This document shows, one piece after another, positions 18,519 to 52,888 of a stretch of DNA of 64,000 bases (within the stretch, counting starts at the first letter, position 1; the number at the start of each line of letters is the position of its first letter). The stretch spans positions 36,689,703 to 36,753,702 of the forward strand of contig CP154954.1 in the NCBI GenBank assembly GCA_039621445.1, given 5' to 3'. The notes below the pieces were generated by a model. The model searched no databases. It saw only the letters and a program-made list of their open reading frames with translations, and was not told the origin of the DNA. A program made the translations under genes and the position numbers. The stretch comes from Euglena gracilis. Its lineage: Eukaryota.

Positions 18519-18578
18519 CTCCAGCACCACCTCCCTCCCGCCGCCGATCACTTGGTGACCGCCGGCGCCTCTCCCCTT
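18519..18578 (+). CDS. First recognisable exon (LQHHLPPAADHLVTAGASPL)
   Basis: Pyrimidine tract then cacag acceptor at 18518; peptide is a diverged copy of the AHHLVIAGPAALPL repeat; followed by N3-CAG hairpin intron. Confidence 0.6.
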
Positions 18579-21500
18579 CCTCAGCCACACAATTGCTCCG
18601 GACCAAAAACCACATCTTTGGTGAGAAAAGTCGGACAGAATCTCATTAAAATGTGGGGGAATCTCACAAATTGTGAAGGAAAATGCCAACTGCAAAGACC
18701 TCCACCAGGGAAAATACCATGATGAGCACCCCATGACGCAACCACCCGGGGCAATTTGGGCAAACCTGGAGTATTTCCCCTATTTGGAGCAATTGCATGC
18801 TGACAATTCCTCCCCGCCCCTCTCCCTCCTCTCCCCGCCGCCCTCCCCCTTCCACTCGCCCTCCCCATGCCGGCGCACAGGGTTGCATGGGAAGCTCCGC
18901 AGACATGAGGTAGTTGGCAGGGGAGGGTCACCCACCCCCCCCCCCAGGGGGGTACGGTGGCGAGGGGGATCCACCCCCCCCAGTGTCAAAAGGAGGGTCC
19001 CCCCACCCCCCTCCCCCTCCTCCCCCTCCAAAAAAAATCTTCCGACGCTTCGCACTAAGTGTGCATTTTGGGACCCTCTTGAGGCTCAGCATGAAATTTC
19101 GGCAAAATGGCCAAAAACGACGTCACTCGGGACAGGCGGGGAGTTGTGGGGAAATCAAAATACTGTTAGATGGGCCATTTTAAGGGCTGCAATTTTGTTC
19201 TCCGGACATGTCCTCTAATTCCCTGCCATTTTGAGAAATACCAGAAATTGATTTTTTGACCTCCCCAAAAAACGGCCAAAATTTTCGACAACCGAAAACT
19301 GGGGTTGGAGTCCCAACCCCCCCCCCCCCATTTTGGAAGGATGCTCCCCCCACTCCCTCCTCCGAGATTCCCATGCGGCCCTGCCGCCGCATCACCTGGT
19401 GATCGCCGGCCCCGCCGCCCTCCCCCTTCGCCTCGCCCTCCCCACGCCGGCACACAGGATTGCATGGGAAGTTCCGCAGACAGAGGTTGGTGGTAGCACC
19501 CCCCCCCCCTGGGGGGCAAGGTGGCGGGGGGCCATTTCTGAGAAATGCCCAAAAAGCTGATTTTTTTTAACCCGGAAAATGGCCAAAAATTTCGGCAACC
19601 GAAAACTGGGGGTCGGAGGCGAGGTCCTACCCCCCCCCCCAAGCTTTTGAAGGGTGCTCCCCCCCACTCCCTCCTCCGAGATTCCCATGCGGCCCTGCCG
19701 CCGCATCACCTGGTGATCGCCGGCCCCGCCGCCCTCCCCCTTCGCCTTGTCGCCCTCCCCCTTCGCCTCGCCCTCCCCACGCCGGCACACAGGGTTGCAT
19801 GGGAAGTTCCTCAGACACAGAGGTTGGTGGTAGCAACCCCCCGGCGAGGGGGGGGGGGGCAAGGTGGCGGGGGGCCATTTCTGAGAAATGCCCCAAAAGC
19901 TGATTTTTTTAACCCGGAAAATGGCCAAAAATTTCGGCAACCGAAAACTGGGGGTCGGAGGCGAGGTCCTACCCCCCCCCCCCAAGCTTTGGAAGGGTGC
20001 TCCCCCCACTCCCTCCTCTGAGATTCCCATGCGACCCTGCCGCCGTATCACCTGGTGATCGCCGGCCCCGCCGCCCTCCCCCTTCGCCTCGCCCTCCCCA
20101 CGCCGGCACACAGGGTTGCATGGGAAGTTCCGCAGACAGAGGTTGGTGGTAGCAACCCCCCCCCCCGGGGGGGCAAGCTGGCGGGGGGCCATTTCTGAGA
20201 AATGCCCAAAAAGCTGATTTTTTAACCCGGAAAATGGCCAAAAATTTCGGCAACCGAAAACTGGGGGTCGGAGGCGAGGTCCTCCCCCCCCCCCAGCTTT
20301 GGAAGGGTGCTCCCCCCCACTCCCTCCTCCGAGATTCCCATGCGGCCCTGCCGCCGCATCACCTGGTGATCGCCGGCCCCGCCGCCCTCCCCCTTCGCCT
20401 CGTCGCCCTCCCCCTTCGCCTCGCCCTCCCCACGCCGGCACACAGGGTTGCATGGGAAGTTCCGCAGGCAGAGGTTGGTGGTAGCACCCCCCCCTGGGGG
20501 GGCAAGGTGGCGGGGGGCCATTTCTGAGAAATGCCCAAAAAGCTGATTTTTTTAACCCGGAAAATGGCCAAAAATTTCGGCAACCGAAAACTGGGGGTCG
20601 GAGGCGAGGTCCTACCCCCCCCCCAAGCTTTTGAAGGGTGCTCCCCCCCACTCCCTCCTCTGAGATTCCCATGCGACCCTGCCGCCGTATCACCTGGTGA
20701 TCGCCGGCCCCGCCGCCCTCCCCCTTCGCCTCGTCGCCCTCCCCCTTCGCCTCGCCCTCCCCACGCCGGCACACAGGGTTGCATGGGAAGTTCCGCAGGC
20801 AGAGGTTGGTGGTAGCACCCCCCCCTGGGGGGGCAAGGTGGCGGGGGGCCATTTCTGAGAAATGCCCAAAAAGCTGATTTTTTTTAACCCGGAAAATGGC
20901 CAAAAATTTCGGCAACCGAAAACTGGGGGTCGGAGGCGAGGTCCTACCCCCCCCCCCCAGCTTTGGAAGGGTGCTCCCCCCACTCCCTCCTCTGAGATTC
21001 CCATGCGACCCTGCCGCCGTATCACCTGGTGATCGCCGGCCCCGCCGCCCTCCCCCTTCGCCTCGCCCTCCCCACGCCGGCACACAGGGTTGCATGGGAA
21101 GTTCCTCAGACACAGAGGTTGGTGGTAGCAACCCCCCCCCCCCCCCCCGGGGGGAAAGGTGGCGGGGGGCCATTTCTGAGAAATGCCCAAAAAGCTGATT
21201 TTTTTTAACCCGGAAAATGGCCAAAAATTTCGGCAACCGAAAACTGGGGGTCGGAGGCGAGGTCCTCCCACCCCCCCCCCAGCTTTGGAAGGGCGCTCCC
21301 CCCCCACTCCCTCCTCCGAGATTCCCATGCGGCCCTGCCGCCGCATCACCTGGTGATCGCCGGCCCCGCCGCCCTCCCCCTTCGCCTCGCCATTCTCCCG
21401 GTGGCCCCCATCCTGGCCCTCCCGGCCCCCGCCCTGGCCCTCCCGGCCCCCGCCCTGGCCCTCCCGGCCCCCGCCCTGGCCCTCCCGGCCCCCGCCCTGG

Positions 21501-24162
21501 CCCTCCCGGCCCCCGCCCTGGCCCTCCCGGCCCCCGCCCTGGCCCTCCCGGCCCCCGCCCTGGCCCTCCCGGCCCCCGCCCTGGCCCTCCCGGCCCCCGT
21601 CCTGGCCCTCCCGGCCCCCGCCCAGGCCCTCCCGGCCCCCACCGTGTTGGCCCTCCCAGCGCCCACCCCGCTGGCCACACTATTGCTCAACGCCGGTCCT
21701 ACCCCAACCGGGGGGGCCGGGGGGGGGTGACCAACTGGTTTCTTCAGAGTGACTGACTGGTTTTTTGCCCCCCCCCCCCAAGGGGTGGGGTAGGCCCGAA
21801 AATGAAAAAGTGTATTTTTCGAGATTTTTTGGCAAATGCTCATTGCCTCCTGCAGAGTGGCCAATCCCTCCGGGGGGGGGGGACTGACTGGTTTTTTTGG
21901 AGTGGAAAGCAACCCCCTTCCCCCCCCCCGGGGTCGCTGAGCAATGGTGTGCTGCTGGCCCTCCCAGCGCCCATCCTGCCGGCCCCCCGGCCCATCCTGC
22001 TGGCCCTCCCAGCACCCACGCTGCCGGCCTGCCGGCCCATCTTGCTGGCCACACCATTGCTCAACACCTGTCGTACCCCAACCGGGGGGGGGGGGTATGC
22101 CCAATAATGAAATGGTGGCTGGCCTGACGCCGAAGTTGCAGGAATTTTTTTTGGATTTTTGTATGTATATATAATATGTTTTTTTTTAATATAAATATGT
22201 ATATGTATGTATACGTCTGTACACATACAATGAAAAAGTGACTGACTGGGTTTTCCGGAAGTAGTGACTGACTGGTTTTTTTTTGGAGTGGAAAGCAACC
22301 CCCTTCCCCCCCCCCCCCCCGGGGCGCTGAGCAATGGTGTGCTGCTGGCCCTCCCGGCACCCATCCCGCCAGCCCTCCCAGCCCTGCGGCCTGTTCAGGG
22401 TTTGTTCCCCTGGTGCACCTGACATGTTTTTTTCCCTTCAGAAATTATCGTTTTGCAAGGGGTTGCCCGCCAAAATGGCCAAATGTGCCCACCTGCTGCC
22501 AGGTTTTTTTTGAAGGTTTGCCGAAGATGTATCCATTTTGGACTTTCTCGACCGAGCAGAAGTCCCGGGGCTGTGCAGAAACCCTCAACAGCCAATGGGT
22601 AACAAATGACAGATCAATGATATATAGTTATGTGCAACGTCCCCATTTTTCTGCACAACAACCAACCCTCGCCCCACCCCGCCGCCATCAACCAACCTCT
22701 TCCTCTACAACTACACTCCACTCAACTACTTCTACAACTACACTCCGCCACCTGCCCCAGCAGCCCCCAGCACCATCGATGCCGCCGCCCCCACGTTCCG
22801 CCCCAAACCTCCGATGCCCCCGGCCCCAATGCCCGCGCCCATCCCCAAGCCCACCAACAACACTCCCACCCCCACCACGACTGCAACGACAACCGCCACC
22901 ACCTGGGCTGTGGCCATCGTCGCCGTCATGCTCCTCTTCCTCGCCTTCCAGGTATGTCTTGTTTACATTCCACGCATAATGGTCAGTCGCTGCAGTGTGA
23001 TCCGAGTGATGCCAGTCGGTGCAGAGTGATCCGATACGGGCGACACCACTGTCACCGGAGCCAGTGCTGGTGAACACCCTGCAGTAGCGAAACTTTGGCA
23101 ATTATTTTTTTGGAATAATTCGGGGCGGGGGACAGGATGGGGGGAGGCGTGATTTTTCAGAGACAGATTGCCTCAATGCCAGCAAATTGGGGGGTGCCAA
23201 AAAGTGCGACCAGGCCCCCGGGACCAGGTCGGCTGGGTTCCCCGACCCCAAAAACCCCACTGTCACCGGAACCACTGCTGGTAAAACACCCCGCAATAGC
23301 AAAATTTTGGCCATTTTTCAGTATAATTCGGGGCGGGGGCGGGGGGTGGGGGGGGGGGCGTGATTTTTTGGGGCCAGATTGCCTCAATGCCAGGAATTTG
23401 GGGGGTGCCAAAAAGTGCGACCAGCCCCCGGGACCAGGTCGGCTGGGTTCCCCACCCCCAAAAACCCCACTGTCACCGGAACCACTGCTGGCAAAACACC
23501 GCTGGTAAAACACCCCGCAATAGCGAAATTTTGGCCATTTTTCAGTATAATTTGGGGCGAGGGGGGGGCGTGATTTTTTGGGGCCAGATTGCCTCAATGC
23601 CAGGAATTTGGGGGGTGCCAAAAAGTGCGACCAGCCCCCGGGACCAGGTCGGCTGGGTTCCCCACCCCCAAAAACCCCACTGTCACCGGAACCACTGCTG
23701 TTAAAACACCCTGCAAAAGCGAAATTTTGGTAATTTTTAAGTGTAATTCGGGGCGGGGGCGGGGGGTGGGGGGGGGCGTGATTTTTTGGGGCCAGATTGC
23801 CTCAATGCCAGGAATTTGGGGGGTGCCAAAAAGTGCGACCAGCCCCCGGGACCAGGTCGGCTGGGTTCCCCACCGCCAAAAACCCCACTGTCACCGGAAC
23901 CACTGCTGGTGGTAAAACACCCCGCAATAGCGAAATTTTGGTAATTTTTAAGTGCAATTCGGGGCGGGGGGGGGGGCGTGATTTTTTTGGGGCCAGATTG
24001 CCTCAATGGCAGGAATTTGGGGGGTGCCAAAAAGTGCGACCAGCCCCCGGGACCAGGTCGGCTGGGTTCCCCACCGCCAAAAACCCCACTGTCACCGGAA
24101 CCACTGCTGGTAAAACACCCCGCAAAAGCGAAATTTTGGTAATTTTTAAGTGTAATTCGGGG

Positions 24163-24194
<32 letters not shown>

Positions 24195-30100: not shown

Positions 30101-33100
30101 GTTTTGTGCTTTCCCTGTCCATCAGTGACCCAAAGTAGACCAAAAATAGGGTTAGGGTTAGGGTTAGGGTCAGGGTAAGGGCCACGTAGCCTGTGGCCCT
30201 AATTAAACCTAACGCTGACCCCTAACTTGATGCTAGCCCTGAACGAACCCTAACTATCTAGAGTGCAACACCAGCCGTATCTCTGACCCTTTTTTATGCT
30301 TTCCCTGTCCATCAGTGACCGAAAATAGGCCAAAAATACGGTTCAGGATAGGGTTAGGGTTAGGGTCACGAAGCCCTAACCTAGCCCCAGCCCTAACCCT
30401 AACCCTGACCCTGACCCTAACCCTAAACCCAACCCTAACTCTCTAGACCCTGTGCCGACACAACAGCCGTATCTTGATTTTTGTGCTTTTATCAGTGACC
30501 CAAAGTAGGCATAGGTGTGGGGGGGGGGGATCGTGATTTTTTTGGGGCCAGATTGCCTCAATGCCAGGAATTTGGGGGGTGCCAAAAAGTGCGACCAGCC
30601 CCCGGGACCAGGTCGGCTGGGTTCCCCACCCCCAAAAACCCCACTGTCACTGGAACCACTGCTGGTAAAACACCCCGCAATAGCGAAATTTTGGTAATTT
30701 TTAAGTGTAATAATTCGGGGCGCGGGGGTGTGGGGGGGGGGGGGGGGGCGTGATTTTTTGGGGCCAGATTGCCTCAATGCCAGGAAATTGGGGGGTGCCC
30801 AAAAGTGCGACCAGCCCCCGGGAGCAGGTCGGCTGGGTTCCCCGCCCCCAAAAACCCCACTGTCACCGGAACCACTGCTGGTAAAACACCCCGCAATAGC
30901 GAAATTTTGGTGTTTTTTAAGTGTAATTCGGGGCGGGGGGGGGGAGGGGCGTGATTTTTCGGGGCCAGATTGCCTCGATGCCAGGAAATTGGGGGGTGCC
31001 AAAAGGTGCGACCAGCCCCCGGGACCAGGTCGGCTGGGTTCCCCGCCCCCAAAAGCCCCACTGTCACCGGAACCACTGCTGGTAAAACACCCCGCAATAG
31101 CGAAATTTTGGCCATTTTTCAGTAATTCGGGGCGGGGGCAGGGGGTGGAAGGGGGCGTGATTTTTTGGGGCCAGATTGCCTCACTGCCAGGAATTTGGGG
31201 GGTGCCAAAAAGTGCGACCAGCCCCCGGGAGCAGGTCGGCTGGGTTCCCCACCCCCAAAAACCCCACTGTCACCGGAACCACTGCTGGCAAAACACCCCG
31301 GAATGGAGAATTTTTGGTAATTTTTAAGGGTAGTTGGGGGGGGGGGGGGGGGGGGGGGGGGGCGTGATTTTTTGGGGCCAGATTGCCTCAATGCCAGGAA
31401 ATTGGGGGGTGCCAAAAGGTGCGACCAGCCCCCGGGACCAGGTCGGCTGGGTTCCCCGCCCCCAAAAGCCCCACTGTCACCGGAACCACTGCTGGCAAAA
31501 CACCGCTGGTAAAACACCCCGCAACAATTTTGCCATTTTTCAGTATAATTCGGGGCGAGGGACAGGATGGGGGGGGGGCGGGGGGGGGCGTGATTTTTTG
31601 GGGCCAGATTGCCTCAATGCCAGGAAATTGGGGGGTGCCAAAAAGTGCGACCAGCCCCCGGGACCAGGTCGGCTGGGTTCCCCACCCCCAAAAACCCCAC
31701 TGTCACTGGAACCACTGCTGGTAAAACACCGTAATTTTAAGTGTAATACGGAGCGGGGCGGGGGGTGGGGGGGGGGGCGTGATTTTTTGGGGCCAGATTG
31801 CCTCAATGCCAGGAATTTGGGGGGTGCCAAAAAGTGCGACCAGCCCCCGGGACCAGGTCGGCTGGGTTCCCCGCCCCCAAAAACCCCACTGTCACCGGAA
31901 CCACTGAGGGTAAAACACCCCGCAATTGTGTAAGTTTGGCCATTTTTCAGTATAATTCGGGGCGGGGGGGTGGGGGGGGCGTGAGTTTTTGGGAATTGGG
32001 GGGTGCCAAAAAGTGCGACCGTGCCCCCGGGACCAGGTCAGCTGGGTTCCCCACCCCCATTGTCACCGGTAAAACACCTTACAATAGGGATTTTTGACAG
32101 TTTTTCAGTATAATTCGGGGTGGGGGTTCGGGGCAGGCTTCTTTTTAATTCACCTGACCCCCCCCTCCCCCGGGGGAGGGGGGTGGGTGGGTGGGTCCGG
32201 GCCGGACCCCCCGGGGGGTGGGGGCTCCGCGCCGCTGCGCCGGGTGTACGTTTTTGGCGCAAAGCGCCGAAAAACGTTGACAATTGCCTTTAACACGCCT
32301 GATTTTTGATTTTGGGGGAGGGGTCCCCGCCACCCGGGGGGTCCCACGCCACCCTGGGGGACCCCCCTTCCCCCCGGGGGTCATAAAAAGAAGCCTGTTG
32401 GGGGGCGCGTGTTTTTTCGGGGCAGATTGGGGGTGTCAAAAAGTGCGACCAGCCTCCGGGACCAGTTCAGCTGTGTGCTTCTCAGCGTGCGTGTGGGAAA
32501 GCCTTCGTGCTCTGCCATCATCTCAATCCAAATCTCCACAGGTCCCGCCACCCGCCGCCTACGTCGCCCCCGCCGAGCTCCTGCAGGAAGCGGACGAGAA
32601 GGCAGCGGAGCACGAGCGGGATCGCCACGCAGGCCCCGGTGGCCAGGAAAATGTGGGCCATCAAAGAAATACCAGGGGTGCACACAATCATTTGCCCCCC
32701 TGTGCTCAGGCGACTCCGCTATGACCCCCCTCCCGTCACAGACACAGCGTCCTGGCGCAAAGCATAAGGCCGAAAACCCTTGGACCCAAAAGCGGCCAAA
32801 AATCAGCCAAAACTTTTTTGGGCAAAAAATTGCCGAAATTTCACAAAAGGGACTCCCGCACCTCACCCCCGCCTTTGCAGTTTCTTCACCAATCCAGGGG
32901 GATCACTGACTGGGTTTTGTCCCTGTCCACCTCCCTCCAGAAGCAGTCATCGCAAAGGTGACCCGGCCGCAAAATATTTCTGCCATTTTTTTCCCGTTCC
33001 AGATTCCAGAGCAGCTGACCCCGGGGGGGGGGGGACTGGCTGGATTTCCAAACTGCCTGGTTCTTGGTGACTGCCTGGTTTTCGGAAGAGTGGACCCCTG

Positions 33101-36100
33101 GGGGAGGGGTCGGCCGATGGTTGCCCACCCCTCTGTCCTCTTCTCCTCCGGGGGGGGGGGGGTTGGACAGGGGTGAGAATATTTTTCCCTGCCATTGGAT
33201 TCTTGAAGCCCCCTCCCCTCATTTGGCAGTTTTACATTGCTCTGCGGGGGGTCGACCCCCCCCATGTGGTTTTCGCAGTCAAACTCCAGAAGGGTTTTTG
33301 ACTTTTGGAAGTTTCGCAACAAAAGATAGAGGAGGTTTCTGTAAGTTTTTTGTGTTTGTCTCCATTTCATAATTTCAGGCTTCTCCCCCCCCCCGAATAA
33401 CACCCCCCCCTCTCCGGGGCCGATTTCGAGCGCCCAAATATCACCCCCCTAATTTCTTTTGGTTTTCCATGTAAAAAATAACACCCCCCCCAAATTACCC
33501 CCCCCCCCCTGGGGACCCAGGGTGCCCAAGTAACACAAGGGGGGGGGGTGTTATTTGGGGGGGTTATTTGGATGGCAGCCATATTCTAAATGCCCCCCCC
33601 CTGGTCACTCTAAATGCCCCCCCCCCCCTGGCATCTTTTTCGTTAATGATGGAGTAGGTTTAGGTGCGCGACTTAGGCTTAGGGTTAGGCCTAACTTGTA
33701 CACCGAACACCCATCTATAAGTTAGGCCTAACCCTAAGCCTAAGTCGCGCACCTAACCCTACTCCATCATTAACACAAAAAAACTATTTTGACCCCCCTG
33801 GTCACTCTAAATGGCCCCCCAGGGGGGGGGCATTTAGAATATGGCTGCCATTTGGATATCCAGGGTAGGGTGTGTACATTGCGGCCGTGTCTTGCTTGTG
33901 TCTGCTTCATGGCCAGGGTGGGGGATCATCATCCCAAAACCCGGCGTTTGTTCGGATTCCACGCGTGGTGCTTTCATTCTGCAGTTTCTGTTTATCACAA
34001 ACCCCCCCGAAAAGTGCCACCAGCAGCCACCACCACATCTGCATCTGTCCCAAAATCAGAAAAATGGGGTTTTTTTGCGCCAAACCAGAATTTTTTTTCA
34101 GCACAAAACTCCCATGGTTTTTAAAGAAGGTCAATGGCTTCCCCCCGGAGGTTTTTGTTCTGAGGGTCCCACACCACGCAGAGGCGTTGGAAAGACGCCT
34201 GCATTGCAATTGTGGTGAAGCCCCCCCATCAGTCCAGCACGGCCTGGGGGCAACACCAGCTCCATCCGCCCCAAAACTTGCTGGCCCGCGCGCGCCGCGC
34301 TGCCAACCCACTGCGTGGGATTCGGCAGCTGCTTGAGCAGGCGGTTTTTTTTGTGGTGTTTATCGAAACAACAAAACAAAACAAACAAAAAGCAGCCTGC
34401 CGCCGAATATTGGTGGCTGATCGAGACCCCCGCGGAGAGGACAACCAGGGCAGAACGGGAGGCCAACCACACCACCGTATTTCCGGGAACACCAATTTTC
34501 GACCCCAAAGTTTTTTTCCGGCGCCAAAGGGGCGGGGAAAAAAATTGTCATGTACGTTATCTAATAAGGTCTATCAATGTTATCTGATAAGAAATCTGTG
34601 AAATTGCCGTGGTGGGGTGGGGGGTCAAACACCCGCCTCCTGGGTGGACCAGGCCTTCCCGTTCTGCCCTGGGGACGGCGAAGGAGATCCAGGTCCGCCA
34701 CGCAGTGGCGGACCCGGACCTCTGTGCCCGCTGCCGCCCACGCCCTTCCTTAAATGTGTGCTCTTCTGTTAAATGTGCGTTGTGGTGACCCAGACAGTGC
34801 AAAGATAATTTAATTACAAATTTCTGTCAAAAATGCCATTTTCGGTTGGAAGGAAACTGACTTTTGGGGACGGGGGATTTCCGTGGGGGGGGGAAGCCCC
34901 CCCCCACCCCTGCCTGTCAAGGACCTCATTCCCATGCATGTTAACACAATGACAAAGTAACGAACGGCGTGGGGCCACCACCGTCGGCTGGGGATGGTGC
35001 AGGCGGAGGTCGCCGGGCGCAGCGTGCCGCTGTGCCCGGCCTGCCGCTTCGCCACGGTGTGTTCTGCCTTGCGCTTTGCTTCCGAATCTCTTTTCATTTT
35101 CATTGTGCACCCCCGTCCCCTGGAATTCTGGATTCAACCTGGACAGTTCTCTTCAAAAGCCACCTGTGGGGGACAGGGGTTTTTTTGGTCGTGGACCCCG
35201 GGGGCATGGGGGCAGGGTTCGATATAAGGAGGGCGTACATGGTTTAGGTGGGGGGGTGTCCCCCCCCCCCCTCCTGGCCTGCAAGGGGGGGTCCGGGCCA
35301 CCCCCCCCCCCCCCACCTGCAAGGGGGGTCCGGACCGACCCTCGGGGGGGTACCCGGGACCCCCCCCCCAAAAAGGGGCAATTTTTTCCTCCGGCGCTTT
35401 GCGCCGAAATTTTTTTGCATTTTTGGCCAATTTTTGCCCAAAAAGTGCCCAAAATGGCACTTTTGGTCGTTTTGGGGGGTCAAAATTTTTCGGCCCGGCG
35501 CTTTGCGCTGGGCCGAAAATCGGTCACCCTGACCGCGCCACTGTTTAGGTGGGGGGGTGTCCCCCCCACCCCCCCCCCCCTCCTGGCCCGCAGGGGGGGG
35601 GGTCTGGACCCCCCCCTCCTTATATCGAACCCTGCCCGGTGGGGGGGGTTGGGAAGGGTTTGATATGAGGAGGCGTACATGGTTCAGGTGGGGGGTGTCC
35701 CCCCCCCTCCTGGCCTGCAGGGGGGTCCGGACCACCCCCCCCCCCCTCCTCTCCTTATATCGAACCCTGGGGTAGGGTGGGTGGGTCCGGCCGAGCCCCC
35801 CCCCCCTGGGGGTCCCACCGGAGGGGGGTGGGATATGCTTTTCGGCGCTGAAGGCGCCGAAAGTGCTATTTTTAGCACTTTCATGGTGTCCAGGCCCATT
35901 ACTAACTCAGAAGACCCCGTGCCACGGGACTGTGTGGAGGTCGGTGCGTTTGGGGTTTGTCCGGGTTCGCAAATGGATCGGGGGTGTGCTGGATCTTCAC
36001 TCAACTGGCAGTAACAAAGTGTCAAGCGTTAGTTTTAGCAAGGGGAGGGGAAGGCAAGGGGAACGCAAATGTTTTTTTTTGCATTATTTGTGTTTTTCTA

Positions 36101-38055
36101 TTTTGATAAAATTTGTGTTTTTATGTCTGTTGTTGTTGTTGTTGTTATTGTTGTTGTTGCATTTTGTTTTTTTCTCCCTCCCGATTTTCTAGTTTCAAAA
36201 AGGGTTTGGGCAAAGGTAAGGGTCAAGGTCTTTTTGACAATGAAAAATTGCTCGTTTTGCCCTCGATTTTCCCCCGAGACCAAAAATTCTGTCGACCTTT
36301 TGTCATTTGCCCGATGGAGAAGTTTTTCCCCTGTGTTGAGTGAACAGTGGTCTTGCGGGAGGGGGAGGGTGCGGGGAAAGAGGGGTTAGACCCCCCGGGG
36401 GGAGGGTGCCACCTGGACCCACCCTGGTGGGTCCAGACCCCCCCTTCAGACCGAGGGGTCTGGGACCCCCGGAAACCCAGAAAGAATAAAAAATGGGTGG
36501 TGCATTGTTTGACTGATTTTTCAAAATTTTTTTTTTTTTAATTCGATTTTTTTGTTTTTTTTGTTGTTAGAGATTTTTTTGTATAATCAAACCCCCTCCA
36601 CCACTCATTTAATACCCTGCCCGAGGGATGGGGGCAGGCTTCTTTTTAAGTCAGCAGACCCCCCCGGGGGGGGGAGGGAGGGTGAGTGCCAGACATTTAT
36701 TCAGTGTGGTATACCAACGTTGTCATTTTGTGGTTCACCGTGGACACCGAGAGTTTTTTTGTGGTTCACCTGTTGACACCAAAAAAAATTTTGTGGTTCA
36801 CACATCTTTTGTGAGCCACACTAAATGAATGTCTGGTGGGTGGGGGGGGGTCCGGGGCCGGACCCCCCGGGGGGTGGGTCCCGCGCCGGGTTTTCCTTTT
36901 CGGCGCGAAGCACCGAAAATTTTTGAAAATTGCCTTTAACGGGCCCGATTTTGGGGTCCCCCCCGGGGTCCCGCGCCACCCTGGGTGGGTGGGGGGACCC
37001 CCCCCGGGGGTCTTAAAAGAAGCCTGGATGGGGGTCCGGACACTCCCAGGCTGTGTTTCAGATTTACAACCTCAAATGCCCCTGCCTCTCACAGTTCGAG
37101 AGCGCGCTGCTGGCGCGTGAGGCAGCGAGGGAACGACCGCCCCGCGCACCGCTAACGGTATGTCATTGCTTGCGCCCCACATCCGCCTGATCTTCGCTCA
37201 CGTCTCCACAAATTTCTCCGGAATGAATTAAAAAACTGATAAAATTCAAAAGAAGACAGATTTGGTGAAATGCAGCTTTCTAAAGGCGATAACGATGGCG
37301 AGGGATGCACATGGGTTTCTGTTTGATTCTTTGCAATGCGCACCCCCCGGGGGGGGGGTGCTATTGGCAGGCAGGGGTAGGGCATTTTCGACCCCTCTGG
37401 AGGGGAGTCGGGGTTTGGGGTGGGTTGGCGCCACAGCACACCCCCTGACGCCGAATGGCCCAAAAATGGCCTCCAAAAAATGACCTGGCTGGTAGGCTCC
37501 GAGATGCACAATACCCCCCCCCCCAGGTTGATGAAAAGAAGCCTGATCCTCTGACGTTGCCCCCCAAATGTTTTGCATTTTGTGGGTTGACTCGCAGAAC
37601 ATCGTACATTTTTTTACCGCATTTTTTTTGGTTGCCATTTTCCCAGGCAGCGAGGGGGAATTATCACAAAGCTCATACCACTTCCCCTCTCACAGGTCCG
37701 CAGCTGGTGGCTGGTGCCCCTGCTGCTCGCCCCCATCGTCGCCGCGGGCTGGACGCACAGGGCCGAGTGGCGTCGGCATTTGGGGTCAGAGAAACGGAAA
37801 GGTGAAATTTGGGAGCACAACCCGGAGTTTGTGGAGCCGGCTTCCTGGGTCAGGTTTGAATTACTGCCAGCGTTGCGTTTCACTCCCATTCAGAGGAATT
37901 TGGCTGAAACATTGTAAGCCTGGTTTTTTTTTGCTGTGCTGGGGGGTTAGATTGGTGCTGTTGACCCCCAGCCAAATCGAGTCAACATGTTTTGTTGAGA
38001 TGTTGAATATTTTCCTTTTTTCATCATCATCATCATCGTCATCATCATTATTGTC

Positions 38056-38087
<32 letters not shown>

Positions 38088-38117
38088 CATCATCATCATC
38101 ATCATTATTATTATTGC

Positions 38118-38172
<55 letters not shown>

Positions 38173-38471
38173 GCTATTATTATCATTATCATCATCATCA
38201 TCATTATTCTTATTCTTATTCTTATTCTTATTCTTATTCTTCTTCTTCTTCTTCTTCTTCTTATTATCATCATCATCATCATCATCATCATCATTATTAT
38301 TATTATTACCATCATCATCATCATCATCATCATTATTATTATTATTACCATCATCATCATCATCATCATCATCATTATTATTATTATTACCATCATCATC
38401 ATCATCATCATCATCATTATTATTATTATTACCATCATCATCATCATCATCATCATCATTATTATTATTAC

Positions 38472-38545
<74 letters not shown>

Positions 38546-39931
38546 GGTGCATTGACCTACCAATGGGCCCTGCTGTTGATCCTGCCGGCCACCGACAGCC
38601 GCCTGGCCAACGCGCTGGCATGGCTGGCCAGGGTTGTATGGGAAGCTCCGCAGACATGACGCAGGTGGCAGGGGGTCCCCCCCTAGGGGGGTAAGGTGGC
38701 AGGGGGGTCCCCCCACCCCCGTCCCCCCGGTTTCGGAAGGGGGTCCCCCACCCACCCCCCTCCCCCTCCTCTGCAGGGGCAAATAAAAATCTTCCGGTGT
38801 GCATTTTTGGACCCTCTTGAAGCTCGATATGAAATTTTGGCAAAATGGCCAAAATTGGTCGAAAAATGGCTGTAACTTGGGCCAGGTGGGGAGTTGAGGG
38901 GAAATCAAAATGGCATTTCAAGGCTTCAATTTAGGTATCTGACATTTTGTCCGCCATTTTTGAGAAATTTCAGAAGAATTGATTTTTTTTGACCCAAACA
39001 GGGCCAAAATTTTCGGCGACTGAATACTGGAGGTAGGGGGGTCCCCCCTCCCCCCCCCCCCCAGTTTTGGAAGGGGAGCCCCCCCCCCCTCGAGATTCCC
39101 ACACAAGCCTGCGGCTGTTGGTGGTCGCCACGTACAGCTGGCTGTACGTGGACTGCCTGCGGCCGCGGCTGCGGTGGGTCGCCGGGTTGTACCCGTGCAC
39201 CTCAAGCGGGGGGCCCTTTGCGGTTGCATTTCAAGGGGCGGAGGGTTGCCTTCAAGTTCATTCGCAAACCCCCAACGGATTTGTCTCTCATCCAAATCCA
39301 ACCTCCCCTCCCCCCCCCCTGGCAGAGGGCCCTCCGCCGCCAGCCGTCGCCGCCATCGTCCATGCCATCGACCGCCGCCTGCGCGAACAAGTCGAGGGCA
39401 ACGGCTACGGCGGGCCACACCCCCGCTGACCCCCCCCCCCCCCCGTTGGCTTGGCTGGGGTCTCCCTGGTCCCTCCCCAGGGATGGATTGGAAGCATTTT
39501 GGTTTGAAGGTGGGTGAGGGGGCCCCTTCCTGGAGGTTGGGGGGGTCCGGACCCCCCCTTCTTTATGACAAAAAATATTTCTTTTGGCGCGCCGGAAAAT
39601 GAACAAAAATGCCCCTTTTCCTCACTTTTGAGCATATTGCGCATTTTTGGGGTGCTTTCCGCAGCTAAAGTGTTCACAATTTTCAAGGAATTCATTTTCA
39701 AAGAAAAATCAAGGGATTTTCAACAATTTTGGTCTCATCCAAATCCAACCTCCCTCCCCCCCCCCCTGGCAGAGGGCCCTCCCCTTTGACACGGGGCGTG
39801 GAGCCACAACGCCGCCTACGCCTCCACCCGCACGGACCACACGTGGGCCATCATGATCGGCCCCGTGGGCGACCTAGCCGTCCACGCCCTGCTGCTGGGC
39901 CAGGCGCTTTTTTTAGCCAACTCCTTTTTTT

Positions 39932-39977
<46 letters not shown>

Positions 39978-41121
39978 TTTGTTTTTTTTGTTTTTTTTTT
40001 TTTTTTTTTTTTGTTTTTTTTTCTCCTTTTTTTTTTTTTGTTTTTATTTTTTCGGCCCCTCCCGGTTGGCGACTTGGCCACATTCCTGGAAGAGCCTGGA
40101 AATCCGGATAGATGCGCCTCATCATTGAAGGACAAAAGTGCTGGACTTGGCAATTGGGGTCAGGGGTGTGAAATGCAGGTAAACGGAATTCACAGGCAAC
40201 ACATGTTTTTTTTTGAATCGCTTTGTTGCACTCCGCCTGTTTCCTGATTGGGTTTCTTTCAGGTCCAACGGATGCCTTTCGGCTCACAATTTGAAGAAAG
40301 TTCTCCAAAGTTCTCCAAACCTCCCGGGCCGTTTGTTTCCCACCCCCACCCCAAGTGGGTTCCCGGGGGGGCCGGCCTGCGGCCAAGTGCCCGCCCCCTT
40401 CATCAACCCCACCACCCCTCCAGCGGTGGAGGACGCGCAGCCGCGCCGCCGCCCGGGCCCGTGGCGAAGGCGAAGGCGGTGCGGCGGGAGATCCAGCGCC
40501 GGCTGTGGCCTGCCGGGGCCCTTCCTGAAGGATGCCCCTCCTCCTGCCTTTCTGCATTGCAAGTCCCACGCAGACAATCACTCACTGATCAGTGGGGTAT
40601 CCCATCCCGACCAGGTTTTTTTTCAAGCTTTGGACCTCCTGGGGGTGGGGGGGGCAGGGTGGGTGGGTCCAGCCAACCCCCCCCCATGGGGGGGGGTCAG
40701 GGGAGTGGGATGTCTTTTCGTCGCTGAAGGTGCCGAAAATTTTTGAAAAAGGTGCTTTTTTTAGCATTTTTCGCGATTTGGCATGTTCGCCCTAGTTTTT
40801 TTGGGTATGCCCCTCGGCTCAATTTGAAGAAAGTTCTCCAAAGTTCCACCCCAACCGTGCGTTGAGCGATGTTTCCCACACAAGGGGTTCAGGCCGTGCC
40901 ACGGCCCCTTTCATCCACCAAAATTGCCCCTACGGGGAGGGAAGCGCAGCGCGCCGCCGCCCGGGCATGGTGACTCCGAGGGAAGCGGGCCGTTGTTTCA
41001 CCACCCAGTCGGTGAGGTCTGTTGAAGTCCCCTCCCCCCCCCCCCCCAAGACTCAGTTCCTTTCTCTGTTGCAAGTCCCCCAGATCCACTCCATGGGTGG
41101 GTCCCATCCCGACCAGGTTTT

Positions 41122-41152
<31 letters not shown>

Positions 41153-43788
41153 TGAAGGTGGGTCAAGCCTGTGGGGGGGGGTCCCCAGGGGGATGAGTTT
41201 CCGCTGAAGGTGCCGAAATTTTTTTCTTTCTTTTTTCGGCCATTTTCGGTGTTGGGACCCCCCCTGGGGTGGGTGGGGTGGCTGGGATGTGGATTTGCAT
41301 CCCCCCTCTCTCTTTGAAGAAGCGACAGGGTGCCAAGCCCCCCTCTTCTGGTGCAAATCCCAGGCACCCCTCCCCCGCCATCTTTGGCAACGGCCTGTCG
41401 CTGCCCGGCCTGCGGAGCCGCCTGCGCCGCCGCGCCGGCTGTCGCGCCAGCTGCGCTGCCAGCCGAGCTGCCGGCCGCGCCGGCCGCTGAAGCAGCAGCG
41501 GTGGCGCAACCCCAGCCAGGCACATAAAACATGGCACACCAAAATACAATCTTTCTTTCTTTCCAGGGGTTTTTTTCATCGTGGACTCCAGGGGGGGGGG
41601 AGGGTGGGTGGGTGGGGCCCCGGGACCCGGGGGGGGGGTCCCCCCGGAGGGGGCTGGGATGCTTTTCAGCTTTTGGCGCAGAACGCTTTTAGAAATTTTT
41701 GAAAAGTGCTATTTTTTAGCACTTTTCGCGATTTTCGGCCATTTTTTTTTGTGGGTCCCCCGACCCCCCCCCCCCCAAGGGGGCCCCTCCAGGGGTTGGG
41801 TGGGGGGGGACCTCCCCCCGGTCTTAAGAGAAACCCATGCTCCTTTCTAAATGAGTGGGAAACAGGGAATTTCTTAAGGGCCCCCCCCCGGGGGGGTCCA
41901 GCCCAGACAATTGCTTAAGCACTGTCCCCCCCCCCCCCCCCCCCGGGGGGTGGGTGACTGGTTTTTTCAGAGTGACTGACTGGTTTTGGGCCCGGACCCC
42001 CTCCCCCCCGGGGGGGGGTCGGCCAGGAGTGGGCAAAAGTGGCTTGAGTGACCCCAGCGCCGAAGGCGCCGGAAAATTTTTTTTGACCTAAAATGGCCTA
42101 AAGTGACTTGAAAGTGGCCGTTTTTCTGAGTGGCCGACCCCCCCCGGGGGGGGGGTAGTGACTGGCTGGTTTTTTTTTTTGAAAATGAGTGACTGACTGG
42201 TTTTTAAAAAAGTGGAGTGACCCCCCCCCCCCCCCCCGGGGTCGGTAAGCAATTGTATGGTCCAGCCTCCGGCTGGCAAAAAAGGCTGTTGGCTGGATTT
42301 GAGCTGCTGGCTGGACCCCCCCCCCCCGGCGGGGGGGGGTGGGGGGTCCGGGACTGGAGGGGACTGGGCTGGGCTGGGTCGAGGAAAAACAAAATTTTCT
42401 AACACATTTTTGTCATTTTAGACGTTTTGATGGGTGGAGCTAGATCAAGGCTGGGGGGCTGTGATGGAGGGCTGTGATGAGGAGAAAAAAAGCAAGGATA
42501 AGTGAGCTGGGCAGGCCCAGTTGGCTGGCCCGCCTGCGGTTGGCTGGCCCGGCCTCCAGTTGGGCTGGACCCAGTTTTATTTTACTCGACCCCCAGGAGG
42601 GGGGCTCCCAGCCCGAATTTGGGCTGCTGGCTGGATTTGAGCTGCTGGCTGGCTGGCCCCCCCCCCCCGGGGGGTAGGGTACCCTCCGGCTCACAAAATT
42701 CCCTGATGGGGAAGGAGCAAAAAAAAGACATTCAATGCATAACTCATCCCATCTGGGGCTGGGGTTGAAAATCCATTTTTTCACTGAGGGCTTTCCAAAA
42801 GAGTTGCCAGAGCCCCCTGCTTCCCTGTCCAGGAAGTTTCTTCGCGTGAGTGATGAAGAATACTCGAAAACCAATGAAATTTTTACACGCAAAGTGAAAA
42901 TTCAGCTCAAAAAACAAGAGAATGTTTTTTTGGAGATAATTAAGCATGGGGGGGTGTCTCTTTGGCTCGGGGCGGCTCACGGTTTGTGTTTTTTGATTTT
43001 GTGATTTGTATGGTTTTTTGTCTGTTTTGTGGTCTTTTTGGCTCGGGGGCCGGCCTCACGGTTTTGATTTTTTTTTTTTTTTTCCCTCCTCACGCCAGGT
43101 GGGAAAACGTTTTTTGAGCCCGCCCAGCTTTGGCTTTGGTGGGGGATTGGCAATTTTCAGGTTGGGGCGCAGCTTAAGAAAATTTGATCCCATGGGGGGT
43201 TCCAGCCCAGGGTTCGATATAAGGAGGGCGCCCAGGGTTCAGGTGGGGGGTGTCCCCCTCCACCCCCCTCCTGGACCAGCCTGCCAAGGGGGTCCGGACC
43301 AACCCTGGGGGGTTCCGGGACCCCCCACCCCCACCTGCCTTGAGATCGAACCCGGCTCCAGCCAGCCAGCAGCCTTTTTTCCAGCATGGGGCCCCCTCCC
43401 GCCCTCAACGAGTTTTATTTATTTCCAGCCTCCCTTTGGGGGGGGGTGAAAAATGGGCCAAAAATGGACAAAAATGACGAAATTGGAAAAGGGCTGGTCA
43501 GGGCAAATTTGGGCCCTTTTCTTTGCATGATTGGCAGTTTTTTTTTGGATTTTTTTTTGCCATTTCGATTTTTTTTGGTGCCTGTTTCGACAGGATCGGG
43601 AGGGGGCAGGGGTCAGCCAGCAGCTTTATTCCAGCCAAGCCAATTTTCCGGCTTCTGAGCTGGACCCCCCATCCTTAAGCTTCGCCCTGACCCAGGGAAA
43701 TGCAACGGTGCATGGCGCTGTGCCCTGCGCACGGCCCAACGCCCTGAAGAGGGCGTGGCGGAAGCTGAAGCGCAAGCTGCACCGGTGA
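18519..43788 (+). CDS. Multi-exon gene, 5' incomplete: Pro/Ala/Leu-repeat N-terminus, membrane helices and CxxC motifs; tentatively TMEM129-like E3 ubiquitin ligase
   Basis: Exons 18519-18578, ~18807-18874, 19389-19451, 19703-19786, 20045-20107, 20356-20439, 20687-20770, 21019-21081, 21343-21672, 21957-22046, 22347-22392, 22676-22951, 32542-32626, 34252-34334, 34405-34442, 34677-34735, 34977-35056, 37095-37157, 37696-37754, 38578-38625, 39117-39203, 39342-39412, 39806-39897, [gap], 41403-41513, 43733-43788 (TGA). Exons are GC3-rich and join in frame under GT-AG or N3/N5 hairpin-intron rules. TRTDHTWAIMIG and CPACGAAC resemble TMEM129 VTDTWVMKV and CPTCRARFC as I recall them; product assignment ~0.45. 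Confidence 0.8.
18878..19383. mobile_element. Family-A hAT-like MITE forming non-canonical intron 18875-19388
   Basis: TIR cagggttgcatggga / tcccatgcggccctg; TSD ccggcgca / ccgccgca (7/8). Confidence 0.85.
19389..21081 (+). CDS. Six repeated micro-exons (63 or 84 nt) encoding A(H/Y)HLVIAGPAALPLR(LVALPLR)LALPTP
   Basis: Spacers between MITE copies are 63,84,63,84,84,63 nt under the N3/N5 rule: all multiples of 3, same phase, no stops. Confidence 0.7.
19389..21342. repeat. Tandem array of ~310-340 bp units (micro-exon + deleted family-A MITE intron), 6 units
   Basis: MITE starts 19455,19790,20111,20443,20774,21085; ends 19697,20039,20350,20681,21013,21337. Confidence 0.9.
21343..21672 (+). 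CDS. Exon with (LALPAPA)n repeat encoded by a 21-bp minisatellite
   Basis: 330 nt, in frame with both neighbouring exons; ggccctcccggcccccgccct repeated ~11 times. Confidence 0.7.
21676..21951. mobile_element. Family-B MITE forming intron 21673-21956
   Basis: TIR cacactattgctca / tgagcaatggtgtg; TSD ccgctggc / ctgctggc (7/8); internal gtgactgactgg repeats. Confidence 0.85.
21957..22046 (+). CDS. Exon (ALPAPILPAPRPILLALPAPTLPACRPIL)
   Basis: 90 nt between two CAC...GTG MITE introns; frame continuous. Confidence 0.75.
22050..22341. mobile_element. Family-B MITE forming intron 22047-22346
   Basis: TIR cacaccattgctca / tgagcaatggtgtg; TSD ttgctggc / ctgctggc (7/8). Confidence 0.85.
22347..22392 (+). 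CDS. Exon (ALPAPIPPALPALRP)
   Basis: 46 nt; follows GTG-N5, ends before gtt-CAG. Confidence 0.65.
22676..22951 (+). CDS. Exon, Pro/Thr-rich then hydrophobic helix (...TWAVAIVAVMLLFLAFQ)
   Basis: 92 open codons ending at canonical CAG|gtatgt; 5' boundary less certain because the intron ends CTC rather than CTG. Confidence 0.7.
23045..32100. repeat. ~207-bp satellite, roughly 38 copies, inside GT-AG intron 22952-32541
   Basis: Unit gtgattttttggggccagattgcctcaatgccagg...gcgaaattttgg...aattcgggg; interrupted at ~27070-27410 and ~29750-30515. Confidence 0.95.
29750..30515. repeat. Degenerate interstitial TTAGGG/CCCTAA tracts in fold-back arrangement with repeated spacer
   Basis: ggttaggg tract at 29895-29953 directly followed by aaccctaa tract; similar at 30148-30180 and 30350-30440; gtgccgacac...cagccgtatct spacer occurs in both orientations. 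Confidence 0.7.
32134..32397. mobile_element. Family-C MITE
   Basis: caggcttctttttaa...taaaaagaagcctg; TSD degenerate. Confidence 0.75.
32542..32626 (+). CDS. Exon (VPPPAAYVAPAELLQEADEKAAEHERDR)
   Basis: ccacag acceptor, phase 0 matching the 22951 donor; strong GC3. Confidence 0.85.
33574..33849. mobile_element. 8-bp-TSD element with GG termini, containing a ttaa-flanked telomere-like hairpin (33643-33773)
   Basis: TIR ggcagccatattctaaatgccccccccctgg; TSD atttggat. Confidence 0.8.
34252..34334 (+). CDS. Exon (QHQLHPPQNLLARARRAANPLRGIRQLL)
   Basis: Follows ggcctg-N5 that pairs with caggcc at 32630; in frame. Confidence 0.8.
34405..34442 (+). CDS. Exon (EYWWLIETPAERT)
   Basis: Between two hairpin introns; in frame. 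Confidence 0.8.
34677..34735 (+). CDS. Exon (AKEIQVRHAVADPDLCARC)
   Basis: Preceding intron ends cagggcagaacgggaggcc / ggccttcccgttctgccctg pair almost perfectly; in frame. Confidence 0.85.
34977..35056 (+). CDS. Exon (HHRRLGMVQAEVAGRSVPLCPACRFAT)
   Basis: Follows GTG-N5; ends at gtgtgt donor; completes a CxxC...CxxC pair with the previous exon. Confidence 0.85.
35213..35634. mobile_element. Family-D MITE (cagggttcgatataaggag TIR)
   Basis: TIR ctccttatatcgaaccctg at right end; related copies at ~35655-35769, 43208-43355 and 60069-60557. Confidence 0.8.
36635..37026. mobile_element. Family-C hAT-like MITE with nested MITE at 36690-36835
   Basis: TIR caggcttcttttt / aaaagaagcctg; perfect TSD gatggggg; inner TIR cagacatttattcagtgtgg / ccacactaaatgaatgtctg. 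Confidence 0.85.
37095..37157 (+). CDS. Exon (FESALLAREAARERPPRAPLT)
   Basis: ctcacag acceptor, gtatgt donor, 63 nt, phase 0-0. Confidence 0.85.
37696..37754 (+). CDS. Exon (VRSWWLVPLLLAPIVAAGW), hydrophobic
   Basis: ctcacag acceptor; ends before N3-cagggcc. Confidence 0.85.
38021..38545. repeat. Compound (ATC)n/(ATT)n/(TTC)n microsatellite inside non-canonical intron 37755-38577
   Basis: Directly visible. Confidence 0.95.
38578..38625 (+). CDS. Exon (TILPATDSRLANALAW)
   Basis: Follows ggccctg-N5; in frame. Confidence 0.85.
38629..39111. mobile_element. Family-A MITE forming intron 38626-39116
   Basis: Homologous along its length to 18878-19383; different TSD tggctggc / cggctgtt (5/8), so an independent insertion. 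Confidence 0.85.
39117..39203 (+). CDS. Exon (LLVVATYSWLYVDCLRPRLRWVAGLYPCT)
   Basis: Follows family-A MITE intron; in frame. Confidence 0.85.
39342..39412 (+). CDS. Exon (SAVAAIVHAIDRRLREQVEGNGYG)
   Basis: Follows CGG...CCG hairpin intron; in frame. Confidence 0.85.
39806..39897 (+). CDS. Exon (DNAAYASTRTDHTWAIMIGPVGDLAVHALLL)
   Basis: Follows CAC...GTG intron; in frame; 3' end uncertain by a few nt. Confidence 0.8.
41403..41513 (+). CDS. Penultimate exon (CPACGAACAAAPAVAPAALPAELPAAPAAEAAAVAQP)
   Basis: Follows ggcctg-N5; joins in frame to the last exon. Confidence 0.75.
41904..42259. mobile_element. Family-B MITE nested inside an intron
   Basis: TIR cagacaattgctta / taagcaattgtatg; perfect TSD gtccagcc. 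Confidence 0.85.
43208..43355. mobile_element. Short family-D MITE
   Basis: TSD ttccagcc / ctccagcc (7/8). Confidence 0.7.
43733..43788 (+). CDS. Last exon (RPNALKRAWRKLKRKLHR*)
   Basis: caggcacat (41517) pairs with tgtgccctg (43727); in frame to TGA. The overlapping cg|gtgagc could instead be a donor. Confidence 0.75.
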
Positions 43789-47191: not shown

Positions 47192-47943
47192 CAGGGTTTT
47201 ATGGGAAGCTCCGCAGACATGAGGTAAACCCTCCCCCGAAATAATCCCCCCCTCCAAATAATACCCCCCCCCCCCGGGGTTCGACTTCGGCCACCCAATT
47301 AATACCCCCCCCCCCCCCAAATCTCGGGCCGACGACCCGGAGTTTGAGTGAAAATTTAGGTAAAAATCACAATCTCTGACAACAGATTGCGAAAAAAAAT
47401 TGATTTTTTTGCTGGATCATCTGGCCTCCAAAAATGCTAAATTTTATGAGAAAGGACAAAAACGACCCCAAAGGGGGTTTTGGTGCTATTTTGGGTCTTA
47501 TGGGACTTCGAAAAATTTCGAAAAAATAATTTTTTGACCGAAGAAACGGCCGAAATTTGCAGCGACCGAAAACTGGAGGTAGGAGGGGGCCCTTGTGTTT
47601 AGTCGGGTTACCCCACAGGGGCGCTGCCGGGGGCAGGCACCCTATAGCACCCGATCCGACCCCCCCCCCCCCGGGAGGTGGGGTTTTTGGGGGGTGTTCC
47701 CCTCCGACCCTGGTGCCGAAGACGCCGGGGGCCCGGAAGAGGCCATTTTCAATGAAAATTTTCTGGTCACCCCAATTTGACCCCCCCCAGGGGGGGGGGG
47801 ACACAGAAGCCAGACAAGAAGCCTTAGTGCAACTAAGGGGGGGTGCCTGCGGGGGGCAGGCACCCTATAAGCACAAGTGCTCCCCCCACCCCCCCAGTTT
47901 TGGAAGGGGGTCCCCCCCCCTCGGAGATTCCCATACAAGCCTC
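47192..47943. mobile_element. Family-A MITE with nested insertions
   Basis: cagggttttatgggaagctccgcagacatg ... gagattcccatacaagcctc. Confidence 0.65.
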
Positions 47944-52530: not shown

Positions 52531-52888
52531 CAGACCATTGTTTAACACCTGTCCCACCCCACCCCCCAGGGGGGTGACTGACTGGTTTTTTCAGGGTGAC
52601 TGACTGATTTTTTTGGCCTTGACTTTCCCCCCGGGGGGGGGGGTAGGGTAGTCCAGAAATCACCCAAAAGTGACTGAGTGGCCAACCGGCGTCAAAGGCG
52701 CCGGAGAAAATTTTGGCCAAAAATGGCCTTGAAAGGCCAAAAAGTGACTGGTTTTCCTGAGTGGCTGACCCCCCCTGGGGGGGGGGGTAAAGTGACTGAC
52801 TGGCTTGGCCGAAAAAAAGTGACTGACCGGTTTTTTCGGAGTGGAAAGTGACCCCCCTCCCCCCCGGGGGTCGCTAAGCAATGGTATG
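52531..52888. mobile_element. Family-B MITE (copies at 55813-56170 and 59521-59876)
   Basis: TIR cagaccattg / caatggtatg; perfect TSD gcccctac; empty site gccccaac at ~49901. Confidence 0.85.

Follow-up and report, generated by a model that had tools for sequence, protein, structure and literature searches.

CAG...CTG elements with exact 8-bp target duplications and predicted nonconventional introns in a 64-kb stretch of the Euglena gracilis genome

For the nonconventional introns of euglenids, a code 5'-N3CDG-/-CH'GN5-6|R, in which D and H' are complementary, has been proven by knock-ins (Nomura 2025, PMC12501133). According to the same work, synthetic 50-bp introns with the code features get spliced, lengthening or shortening of the 5' spacer by one nucleotide (±1) abolishes splicing, one additional nucleotide (+1) is tolerated in the 3' spacer, and the purine at the exon start is itself required for splicing. 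Nonconventional introns make up 71.8% of the introns of E. agilis; 38.8% of the nonconventional introns of this species lie outside the code, 69.1% of nonconventional introns are 'slidable' through junction repeats, and their origin is still described as unclear (PMC12501133). An origin from miniature transposable elements with inverted repeats (MITEs) was proposed in 2014, when no euglenid transposon had been identified (PMC3935182). In one strain of E. agilis (ACOI 323), direct repeats of 8 nt are present at a newly gained, strain-specific intron, intron 4 of gapC, and were interpreted by the authors as break repair (PMC4770533), a Y|R pattern is found at both nonconventional junctions (PMC6221363), and terminal inverted repeats (TIRs) and target site duplications (TSDs) are drawn at such junctions in a 2024 review (legend to Fig. 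3D, PMC11282704). Here we analyze a stretch of 64,000 nucleotides of E. gracilis contig CP154954.1 (hereafter the window), which contains several families of CAG...CTG elements and, plausibly within one gene, 19 predicted nonconventional introns.

We propose that the window is nuclear DNA of the euglenid type, populated by non-autonomous cut-and-paste MITEs that have the ends 5'-CAG...CTG-3' and make an exact 8-bp target duplication. When such an element lies in an exon, its TIRs would pair in the transcript, with CAG:CTG closing the stem, and the euglenid nonconventional splicing activity would cut 3 nt before CAG and 5 nt after CTG, ahead of a purine. The element would thus leave together with 3+5 = 8 flanking nucleotides, that is, one copy of the TSD, and the mRNA would return to the pre-insertion sequence. 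Since the length of the TSD equals the sum of the two spacers, a cut of the form abcde|fgh-element-abcde|fgh restores abcdefgh. As a whole, we consider this the best explanation of the data, with a probability of roughly two in three.

Maize Ac/Ds elements of the hAT superfamily, with an 8-bp TSD and CAGGG-type ends, were reportedly described by Giroux in 1994 as acting as introns after insertion into exons; they are said to use cryptic spliceosomal sites, and their removal to be usually imprecise. Unlike these, the cuts predicted here would restore the sequence exactly. Introners of Micromonas, Aureococcus, dinoflagellates, and others resemble the window elements in being non-autonomous DNA transposons and in carrying TIRs and TSDs. 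They create introns at many sites, with the TSD contributing to exact removal; they are removed by the spliceosome at GT/GC-AG sites and the Micromonas TSD is 3 nt long (PMC11282704), whereas a non-spliceosomal code and an 8-bp TSD split 5|3 are predicted here. The Merlin elements of E. gracilis are likewise euglenid DNA transposons with 8-bp TSDs and near-perfect TIRs, but they are autonomous and encode an IS1595-type DDE transposase (PMC8101967), and no such open reading frame (ORF) was found among those scanned in this window. With the published euglenid introns (PMC3935182, PMC4770533, PMC12501133) the segments studied here share the lack of GT-AG ends, the 3/5-nt spacers, the purine of the next exon and, for the most part, the CAG/CTG positions and the terminal stem; unlike those, they can be assigned to repeat families that show exact 8-bp TSDs and empty sites in other copies, and the spacer sum is read as the length of the TSD.

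Elements with 8-bp target duplications

Families A and B were defined by searching the window with the repeated introns by BLAST. The ends of family A are CASACMATTG...CAATKGTRTG, and those of family B are CAGGGTTGYATGGGAA. CA..TG inverted-repeat pairs were scanned in an unbiased manner with 13-nt repeats and shifted-register controls. Among 311 non-redundant pairs, the flanking 8-mers at the exact register are identical in seven, and the twelve shifted registers yield 0, 0, 2, 0, 0, 0, 0, 0, 0, 1, 0, and 0 identical 8-mers. Two more perfect cases come from other scans, bringing the window to nine independent perfect (8/8) TSDs. The 13-nt scan was preferred to a stringent 14/16 TIR scan, which was cluttered by positions within longer inverted repeats; a maximal-repeat scan was confounded by TSDs running on by chance into the C...G element ends. 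Eight of the nine elements start with CAG, and the remaining one has a CACAG start and a low-complexity TIR. The elements, one empty site, and two related loci are the following.

10360..12157, +: 1.8-kb element (CACAGGGGG...), matching 8-mers CCTAGCCT; the weaker case, with the low-complexity TIR
11091..11264, +: 174-bp MITE (CAGGGCTGA...), perfect TSD GGAGGACG
33574..33849, +: 276-bp element, perfect 14-nt ends GGCAGCCATATTCT, 8-bp TSD ATTTGGAT, nested in the predicted intron 32627-34251
36635..37026, +: family C MITE, perfect TSD GATGGGGG, lying within a gene intron that is probably conventional
41904..42259, +: family A MITE, perfect TSD GTCCAGCC
47192..47943, +: third family B locus, right end degenerate (…AAGCCTC), flanks of low complexity
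48408..48701, +: MITE (CAGGCTGTTTTTT), perfect TSD GCAGGCAC
49868..49940, +: empty-site paralogue of the family A insertion at 52531, single GCCCCAAC, 96% identity over 73 nt across the junction
50846..52451, +: AT-rich 1.6-kb element (CAGGCACCTATAG), perfect TSD GCCACAGC, copies at 54131-55733 and 57418-59441
52531..52888, +: family A MITE, perfect TSD GCCCCTAC, repeated at 55813-56170 and 59521-59876 in a 3.3-kb tandem unit
53127..53417, +: family C MITE (CAGGCTTCTTTTTAAG), perfect TSD GGGGGGTG, nested within an element of family D, duplicate at 56409-56702
60069..60557, +: family D MITE (CAGGGTTTGATATAAG), perfect TSD CCTCAGCC

The family A insertion at 52531 has its empty site at 49868, and the family C insertion at 53127 has four empty sites, in family D copies, with one copy of the 8-mer, at 60075-60146 (98.6%), 50099-50175, 35221-35289, and 35660-35728; three of these four were read base by base. 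Taken together, the TSDs and the empty sites prove directly that the elements transposed, with a cut staggered by 8 bp. Families A to D occupy at least two independent loci each, and their members are short and non-coding, with TIRs and a TSD of fixed length, as expected of MITEs. On this point the reading of the first-pass annotation is supported: MITEs with CAG...CTG ends and exact 8-bp TSDs are common in the window, with nine independent perfect cases and two pairs of filled and empty sites. The element at 33574-33849 represents a second, non-CAG class of transposons with an 8-bp TSD.

Between 50 and 60 kb, the window contains three copies of the tandem unit of about 3.3 kb, each with the CAGGCACCTATAG element (1.6-2.0 kb), a family A element, and a family C element. 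As the same three nested insertions are present in each copy, the insertions are older than the duplication.

The elements had been labeled hAT in the first-pass annotation. CA...TG termini and 8-bp TSDs are classic for this superfamily (Ac/Ds-type ends), its terminal consensus is YARNG, and its target preference is nTnnnnAn. The 8-bp TSD and the CA..TG ends are indeed present, and the CAGGG ends (family B, family D, and the 11091 element) fit YARNG. The CAGGC ends (family C, 48408, and 50846) and the CAGAC ends (family A) do not, and of the nine TSDs one has the preferred base at position 2 and two at position 7. The ends of IS1595/Merlin elements start with GG, and Merlin TSDs are 8-9 bp long, a range that includes the length observed here. 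Judging by the consensus of the ends alone, the element at 33574-33849 may be Merlin-like; its GGCAGCC ends are closer to that consensus, which would leave the CAG class as something else. No Pfam family, and no transposase, was detected in the 10 ORFs scanned out of the 106 window ORFs of at least 150 aa, and the largest, approximately 2-kb copy of the CAGGCACCTATAG element (1.6-2.0 kb) contains no transposase-like or long ORF. In the literature searched we found no paper naming hAT in Euglena, and two Merlin families of E. gracilis both have 8-bp TSDs (PMC8101967). The hAT label comes only from the TSD length and the CA..TG ends; by these the superfamily is hAT-like, but it is not established. 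The odds that the mechanism is as proposed and the elements belong to Merlin, P, or another superfamily with 8-bp TSDs seem to us even, and those of hAT membership slightly below even.

Predicted introns and codon phase

The 19 segments comprise seven tandem ones, located at 18875-21342, and 12 taken from the coordinate list of the first-pass annotation. They are listed here together with a probable conventional intron.

18875-19388, 19452-19702, 19787-20044, 20108-20355, 20440-20686, 20771-21018, and 21082-21342, +: seven tandem predicted introns of the family B MITE type
21673..21956, +: in-frame family A MITE (element 21676-21951), variant motif CAC-GTG, flanks CCGCTGGC / CTGCTGGC, 7/8
22047..22346, +: in-frame family A MITE (element 22050-22341), variant motif CAC-GTG, flanks TTGCTGGC / CTGCTGGC, 7/8
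22393..22675, +: predicted nonconventional intron, CAG-CTC, one base off the published code
22952 (GTATGT)..32541 (CACAG), +: probable conventional GT..AG intron, which would join the gene halves in frame
32627..34251, +: predicted nonconventional intron, CAG-CTG, containing the nested GGCAGCC...GGCTGCC element 33574-33849
34335..34404, +: predicted 70-nt nonconventional intron, CAG-CTG
34443..34676, +: predicted nonconventional intron, TIR 12/12 (CAGGGCAGAACG), flanks 5/8
34736..34976, +: predicted nonconventional intron, CAC-GTG variant, flanks 5/8
37755..38577, +: predicted nonconventional intron, CAG-CTG, containing a (TCA)n run at 38021-38545
38626..39116, +: in-frame family B MITE (element 38629-39111), flanks TGGCTGGC / CGGCTGTT, 5/8
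39204..39341, +: predicted nonconventional intron, CGG-CCG
39413..39805, +: predicted nonconventional intron, CAC-GTG variant
41514..43732, +: predicted nonconventional intron, CAG-CTG, containing the nested family A MITE 41904..42259

None of the 19 segments has GT/GC-AG ends, even after the borders are slid along the flanking repeats, and in all 19 both the segment and the next exon start with a purine, exactly as the first-pass annotation had stated. Its claim of complementary ends is good for 18 segments, in which 8-12 of the 12 bases just inside the N3/N5 spacers are complementary, but not for the odd one out, 41514-43732, with 4/12 in an ungapped comparison; judged by eye, the ends of this segment are offset by one base. 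At positions +4..+6 and -8..-6, the motif pair is CAG-CTG in 13 segments (the seven tandem copies and six others) and CGG-CCG in one, which places 14/19 within the published tested code N3-CDG...CH'G-N5(-6)|R. The remaining pairs are CAC-GTG in four segments (21673, 22047, 34736, and 39413) and CAG-CTC in one (22393). Folding of two short introns closes their ends, with z = -3.1 for 34335-34404 and z = -3.6 for 39204-39341. A scan of the window against Rfam gave no matches. The poly-G/C tracts, the GC-rich codon-structured exons, and the segments with the nonconventional code are of the euglenid type by comparison with the literature.

Families A and B occur both in the predicted reading frame of the one gene examined and elsewhere in the window. 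The family A copies at 21676 and 22050 align with the family A copies that have perfect TSDs (BLAST E 1e-10 to 1e-15); the first has paralogous empty-like sites within the same repetitive exon, and the 22047 unit may have arisen from the 21673 unit by tandem duplication. The family B element in 38626-39116 fits the published code in full, GGC-CAG...CTG-CGGCT|G, in a codon-periodic frame. In the tandem family B units (TIR CAGGGTTGCATGGGAA / CAGGGYCGCATGGGAA), the exons between the elements are 63 or 84 nt long, and the flanking 8-mers match at 7/8 positions in the first copy and at 5-6/8 in the rest; with a period of 331 bp, the array was counted as a single insertion event, duplicated afterwards. 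The unit of an exon and a MITE-intron at 18875-21389 is tandemly duplicated sevenfold, so that the protein gains repeats (…HHLVIAGPAALPLRL…) with one intron per repeat.

Open frames test the gene model only weakly, since two or three frames are open in most of the short exons, and the open-frame test of the restored frame was dropped in favor of codon-position composition. For each exon, the phase maximizing the GC content at third minus second codon positions (GC3-GC2) was compared with the phase predicted by the N3+N5 model. The two agree in 19/21 exons, namely 9/11, 5/5, and 5/5 across the three parts of the gene. In parts 2 and 3 the exon phases differ, which provides eight independent junction tests, all passed, with a chance of about 1/3 each; the first exon of each part fixes the frame and was excluded from this count. 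This agreement supports real coding exons and a removed length from TIR to TIR plus 8, modulo 3; it addresses this length only, the exact position of the cut being beyond its reach. The earlier claim that the reading frame is restored every time is thus upheld by the phase in 19/21 exons, but as a statement on open frames it is only weakly testable. After removal of the segments from part 1, an open frame of about 400 codons is obtained, ending in a transmembrane-like stretch.

The probable conventional intron 22952-32541 contains a satellite of about 9 kb (23046-31979) with a unit of 201-208 bp in three blocks of 19, 11, and 7 copies. Interstitial telomere-like repeats (TTAGGG)n / (CCCTAA)n are found at 30152-30169, 30354-30365, and 30391-30440, within an element at 29879-30452 that has CAGGTTATAGAGA-type inverted ends and flanks matching at 6/8 positions. 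The (TCA)n run in 37755-38577 consists of about 173 units. Introns 39204-39341 and 39413-39805 have in common a 50-nt stretch near their 3' ends (39286-39335 and 39733-39782, 96% identity), and a T-rich run of 128 nt (39925-40052) directly follows the exon whose start is at 39806.

Target duplications at the predicted introns and competing explanations

In the 13 independent introns, the flanking 8-mers match at 55/104 positions versus a permutation mean of 43.8 (p=0.015). A match of 7/8 is observed in the two exonic family A copies and in the family B array, and the family B element at 38626 has 5/8. The exonic family A elements have fully paired CAC...GTG ends, and the non-coding copies at 41904 and 52531 have CAG...ATG ends with the outermost pair mismatched; the difference may be due to chance or to selection for pairing where copies are transcribed.

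A number of observations count against erasure of the elements by splicing. Among the introns, only the four recognizable family copies contribute to the TSD signal: the nine non-family introns match at 29/72 positions versus a permutation mean of 28.7 (p=0.52), so that their TSDs have either decayed or were never present, and at positions -8 and -7 the flanks match in just 3/13 and 5/13 introns. Every copy with a perfect TSD lies in non-coding DNA, where the codon periodicity of the flanks is weak (GC3-GC2 not above 0.20; ten exons from parts 2 and 3 of the gene have 0.24-0.49), and a perfect-TSD MITE within a coding exon was sought in the window and not found; thus no young exonic insertion was caught. 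Five of the 19 segments fall outside the tested code, the four with CAC-GTG, including both exonic family A copies, and the one with CAG-CTC, and single changes in CAG or CTG abolished splicing in the published assays (PMC12501133). The same work allows a 3' spacer of 6 nt, so the spacer sum is not strictly 8. Protein searches with the exon translations found no homologue.

The RNA data add to these points. Reads were mapped to 18500-23045 from two raw RNA runs, about 5% of each being read, and none of the 15 joints listed, out of 45 for this region, falls at any of the ten predicted nonconventional junctions. Raw depth on the exon 22676-22951 is zero in both runs, with only repeat fragments elsewhere; nearly all mapped raw reads are partial repeat matches (1023/1024 and 528/529). 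The sets X15 and X16 carry an RNA label that is itself a guess; their contigs cover pieces of exons and introns at depth 3-11, some of them lying inside 22393-22675, and X16 record 16 (22583-22762) runs unspliced over the 3' border of this segment. The match of one X15 contig ends at 22953, adjoining the predicted conventional donor. For 32000-41999, no RNA set was listed. An X15 word share of 0.22 was discarded as a sign of expression, being about equal to the estimated X15 coverage of 18500-23045, introns included. The RNA data for this region neither support nor refute splicing of the predicted segments.

Apart from the question of superfamily, the 3+5 = 8 relation could be coincidental: the spacers would be set by the shape of the splicing machinery, the MITE ends would mimic the code, and most introns would have another origin. 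The nine introns with no TSD signal are in line with this, as are the 38.8% of E. agilis nonconventional introns off the code, the 3' spacer of 5 or 6 nt, and the exon-start purine, which is a splicing requirement in its own right (PMC12501133). Yet the motif needed by the machinery is the exact transposon terminus and the TSD length is the exact spacer sum; moreover, a recently gained intron has 8-nt repeats (PMC4770533), junction repeats accompany most nonconventional introns (PMC12501133), and old TSDs are expected to decay. We regard coincidence as unlikely. The arithmetic of the 3+5 = 8 inference made in the first-pass annotation is sound, the 8-bp TSDs are real, and families A and B are in frame, but its extension to the nine non-family introns lacks a TSD signal.

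A similarly low probability attaches to the possibility that the gene at this locus has decayed or fallen silent, or that the gene model is partly wrong, the MITEs disrupting it with no removal in RNA. The zero raw-read depth on exons in two RNA runs and the contig running unspliced across 22675/22676 point in this direction, together with the product, which is proline-rich, repetitive, and devoid of detected homologues, the CAC-GTG ends of the exonic family A copies, and the occurrence of long open frames by chance in GC-rich DNA, for instance, a minus-strand frame of 764 aa that runs through the unspliced MITE array. Against it stands the strong codon-position GC periodicity, with the predicted phase in 19/21 exons and correct shifts across junctions. 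An open frame of about 400 codons that appears only once the segments are removed also speaks against it, as do exons between the MITEs that are all multiples of 3 nt (63 or 84) and the X15 contig that breaks off at the predicted conventional donor.

Finally, scars of double-strand-break repair or filler-DNA capture (Milanowski 2016), rather than transposase-made TSDs, are a highly improbable source of the junction repeats, for although the authors themselves read the 8-nt repeat at the new gapC intron in this way (PMC4770533), such scars would vary in length and would not follow TIRs, while nine independent elements, from several multi-copy families, all have a flush exact 8-bp repeat beside conserved TIRs, and two clean empty sites are present.

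We therefore retain, as the best explanation as a whole, CAG...CTG MITEs with 8-bp TSDs erased by nonconventional splicing. The TSDs, the empty sites, the shared termini, the in-frame copies of families A and B, and the codon phase are observed in the window; the N3/N5|R rule and its experimental proof come from the literature (PMC12501133). On this basis we infer that these particular segments would be spliced, that most older nonconventional introns would have begun as such elements, and that the spacer sum of 8 would be due to the TSD and not to chance. Overall, the earlier reading is partly supported and is a refinement of a known idea, not a new principle, as the MITE origin (PMC3935182), the TIR and TSD at the junctions (PMC11282704), the splicing code with its N3/N5|R geometry (PMC12501133), and an 8-nt repeat at a gained intron (PMC4770533) are already in print. 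In the article texts searched, we found no explicit statement that the spacer sum equals the TSD length and, for nonconventional introns, no repeat families with empty sites and no superfamily assignment.

Implications for euglenid introns

The origin of euglenid nonconventional introns has been a standing question since the 1990s. To this question the window supplies repeat families that end as required, have target duplications of exactly 8 bp, and are accompanied by empty sites, together with a numerical prediction, the equality of the spacer sum and the TSD length. In its widest form, the proposal is that an 8-bp TSD, split in two, provides the 3-nt and the 5-nt spacer of the code and that the majority intron class of Euglena would consist of CAG...CTG transposons erased in RNA; for this we see equal chances of being right and wrong. 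If true, it would explain the tolerance of exon insertions, the 'slidable' majority of nonconventional introns, and the common Y|R at both junctions (PMC6221363), a shared pattern being expected where both junctions are the same position of the TSD. In that case, the circular RNA of an excised intron would contain TIR-TSD-TIR and be the RNA counterpart of a transposon circle, and the splicing activity and the CAG...CTG class of transposons would have co-evolved.

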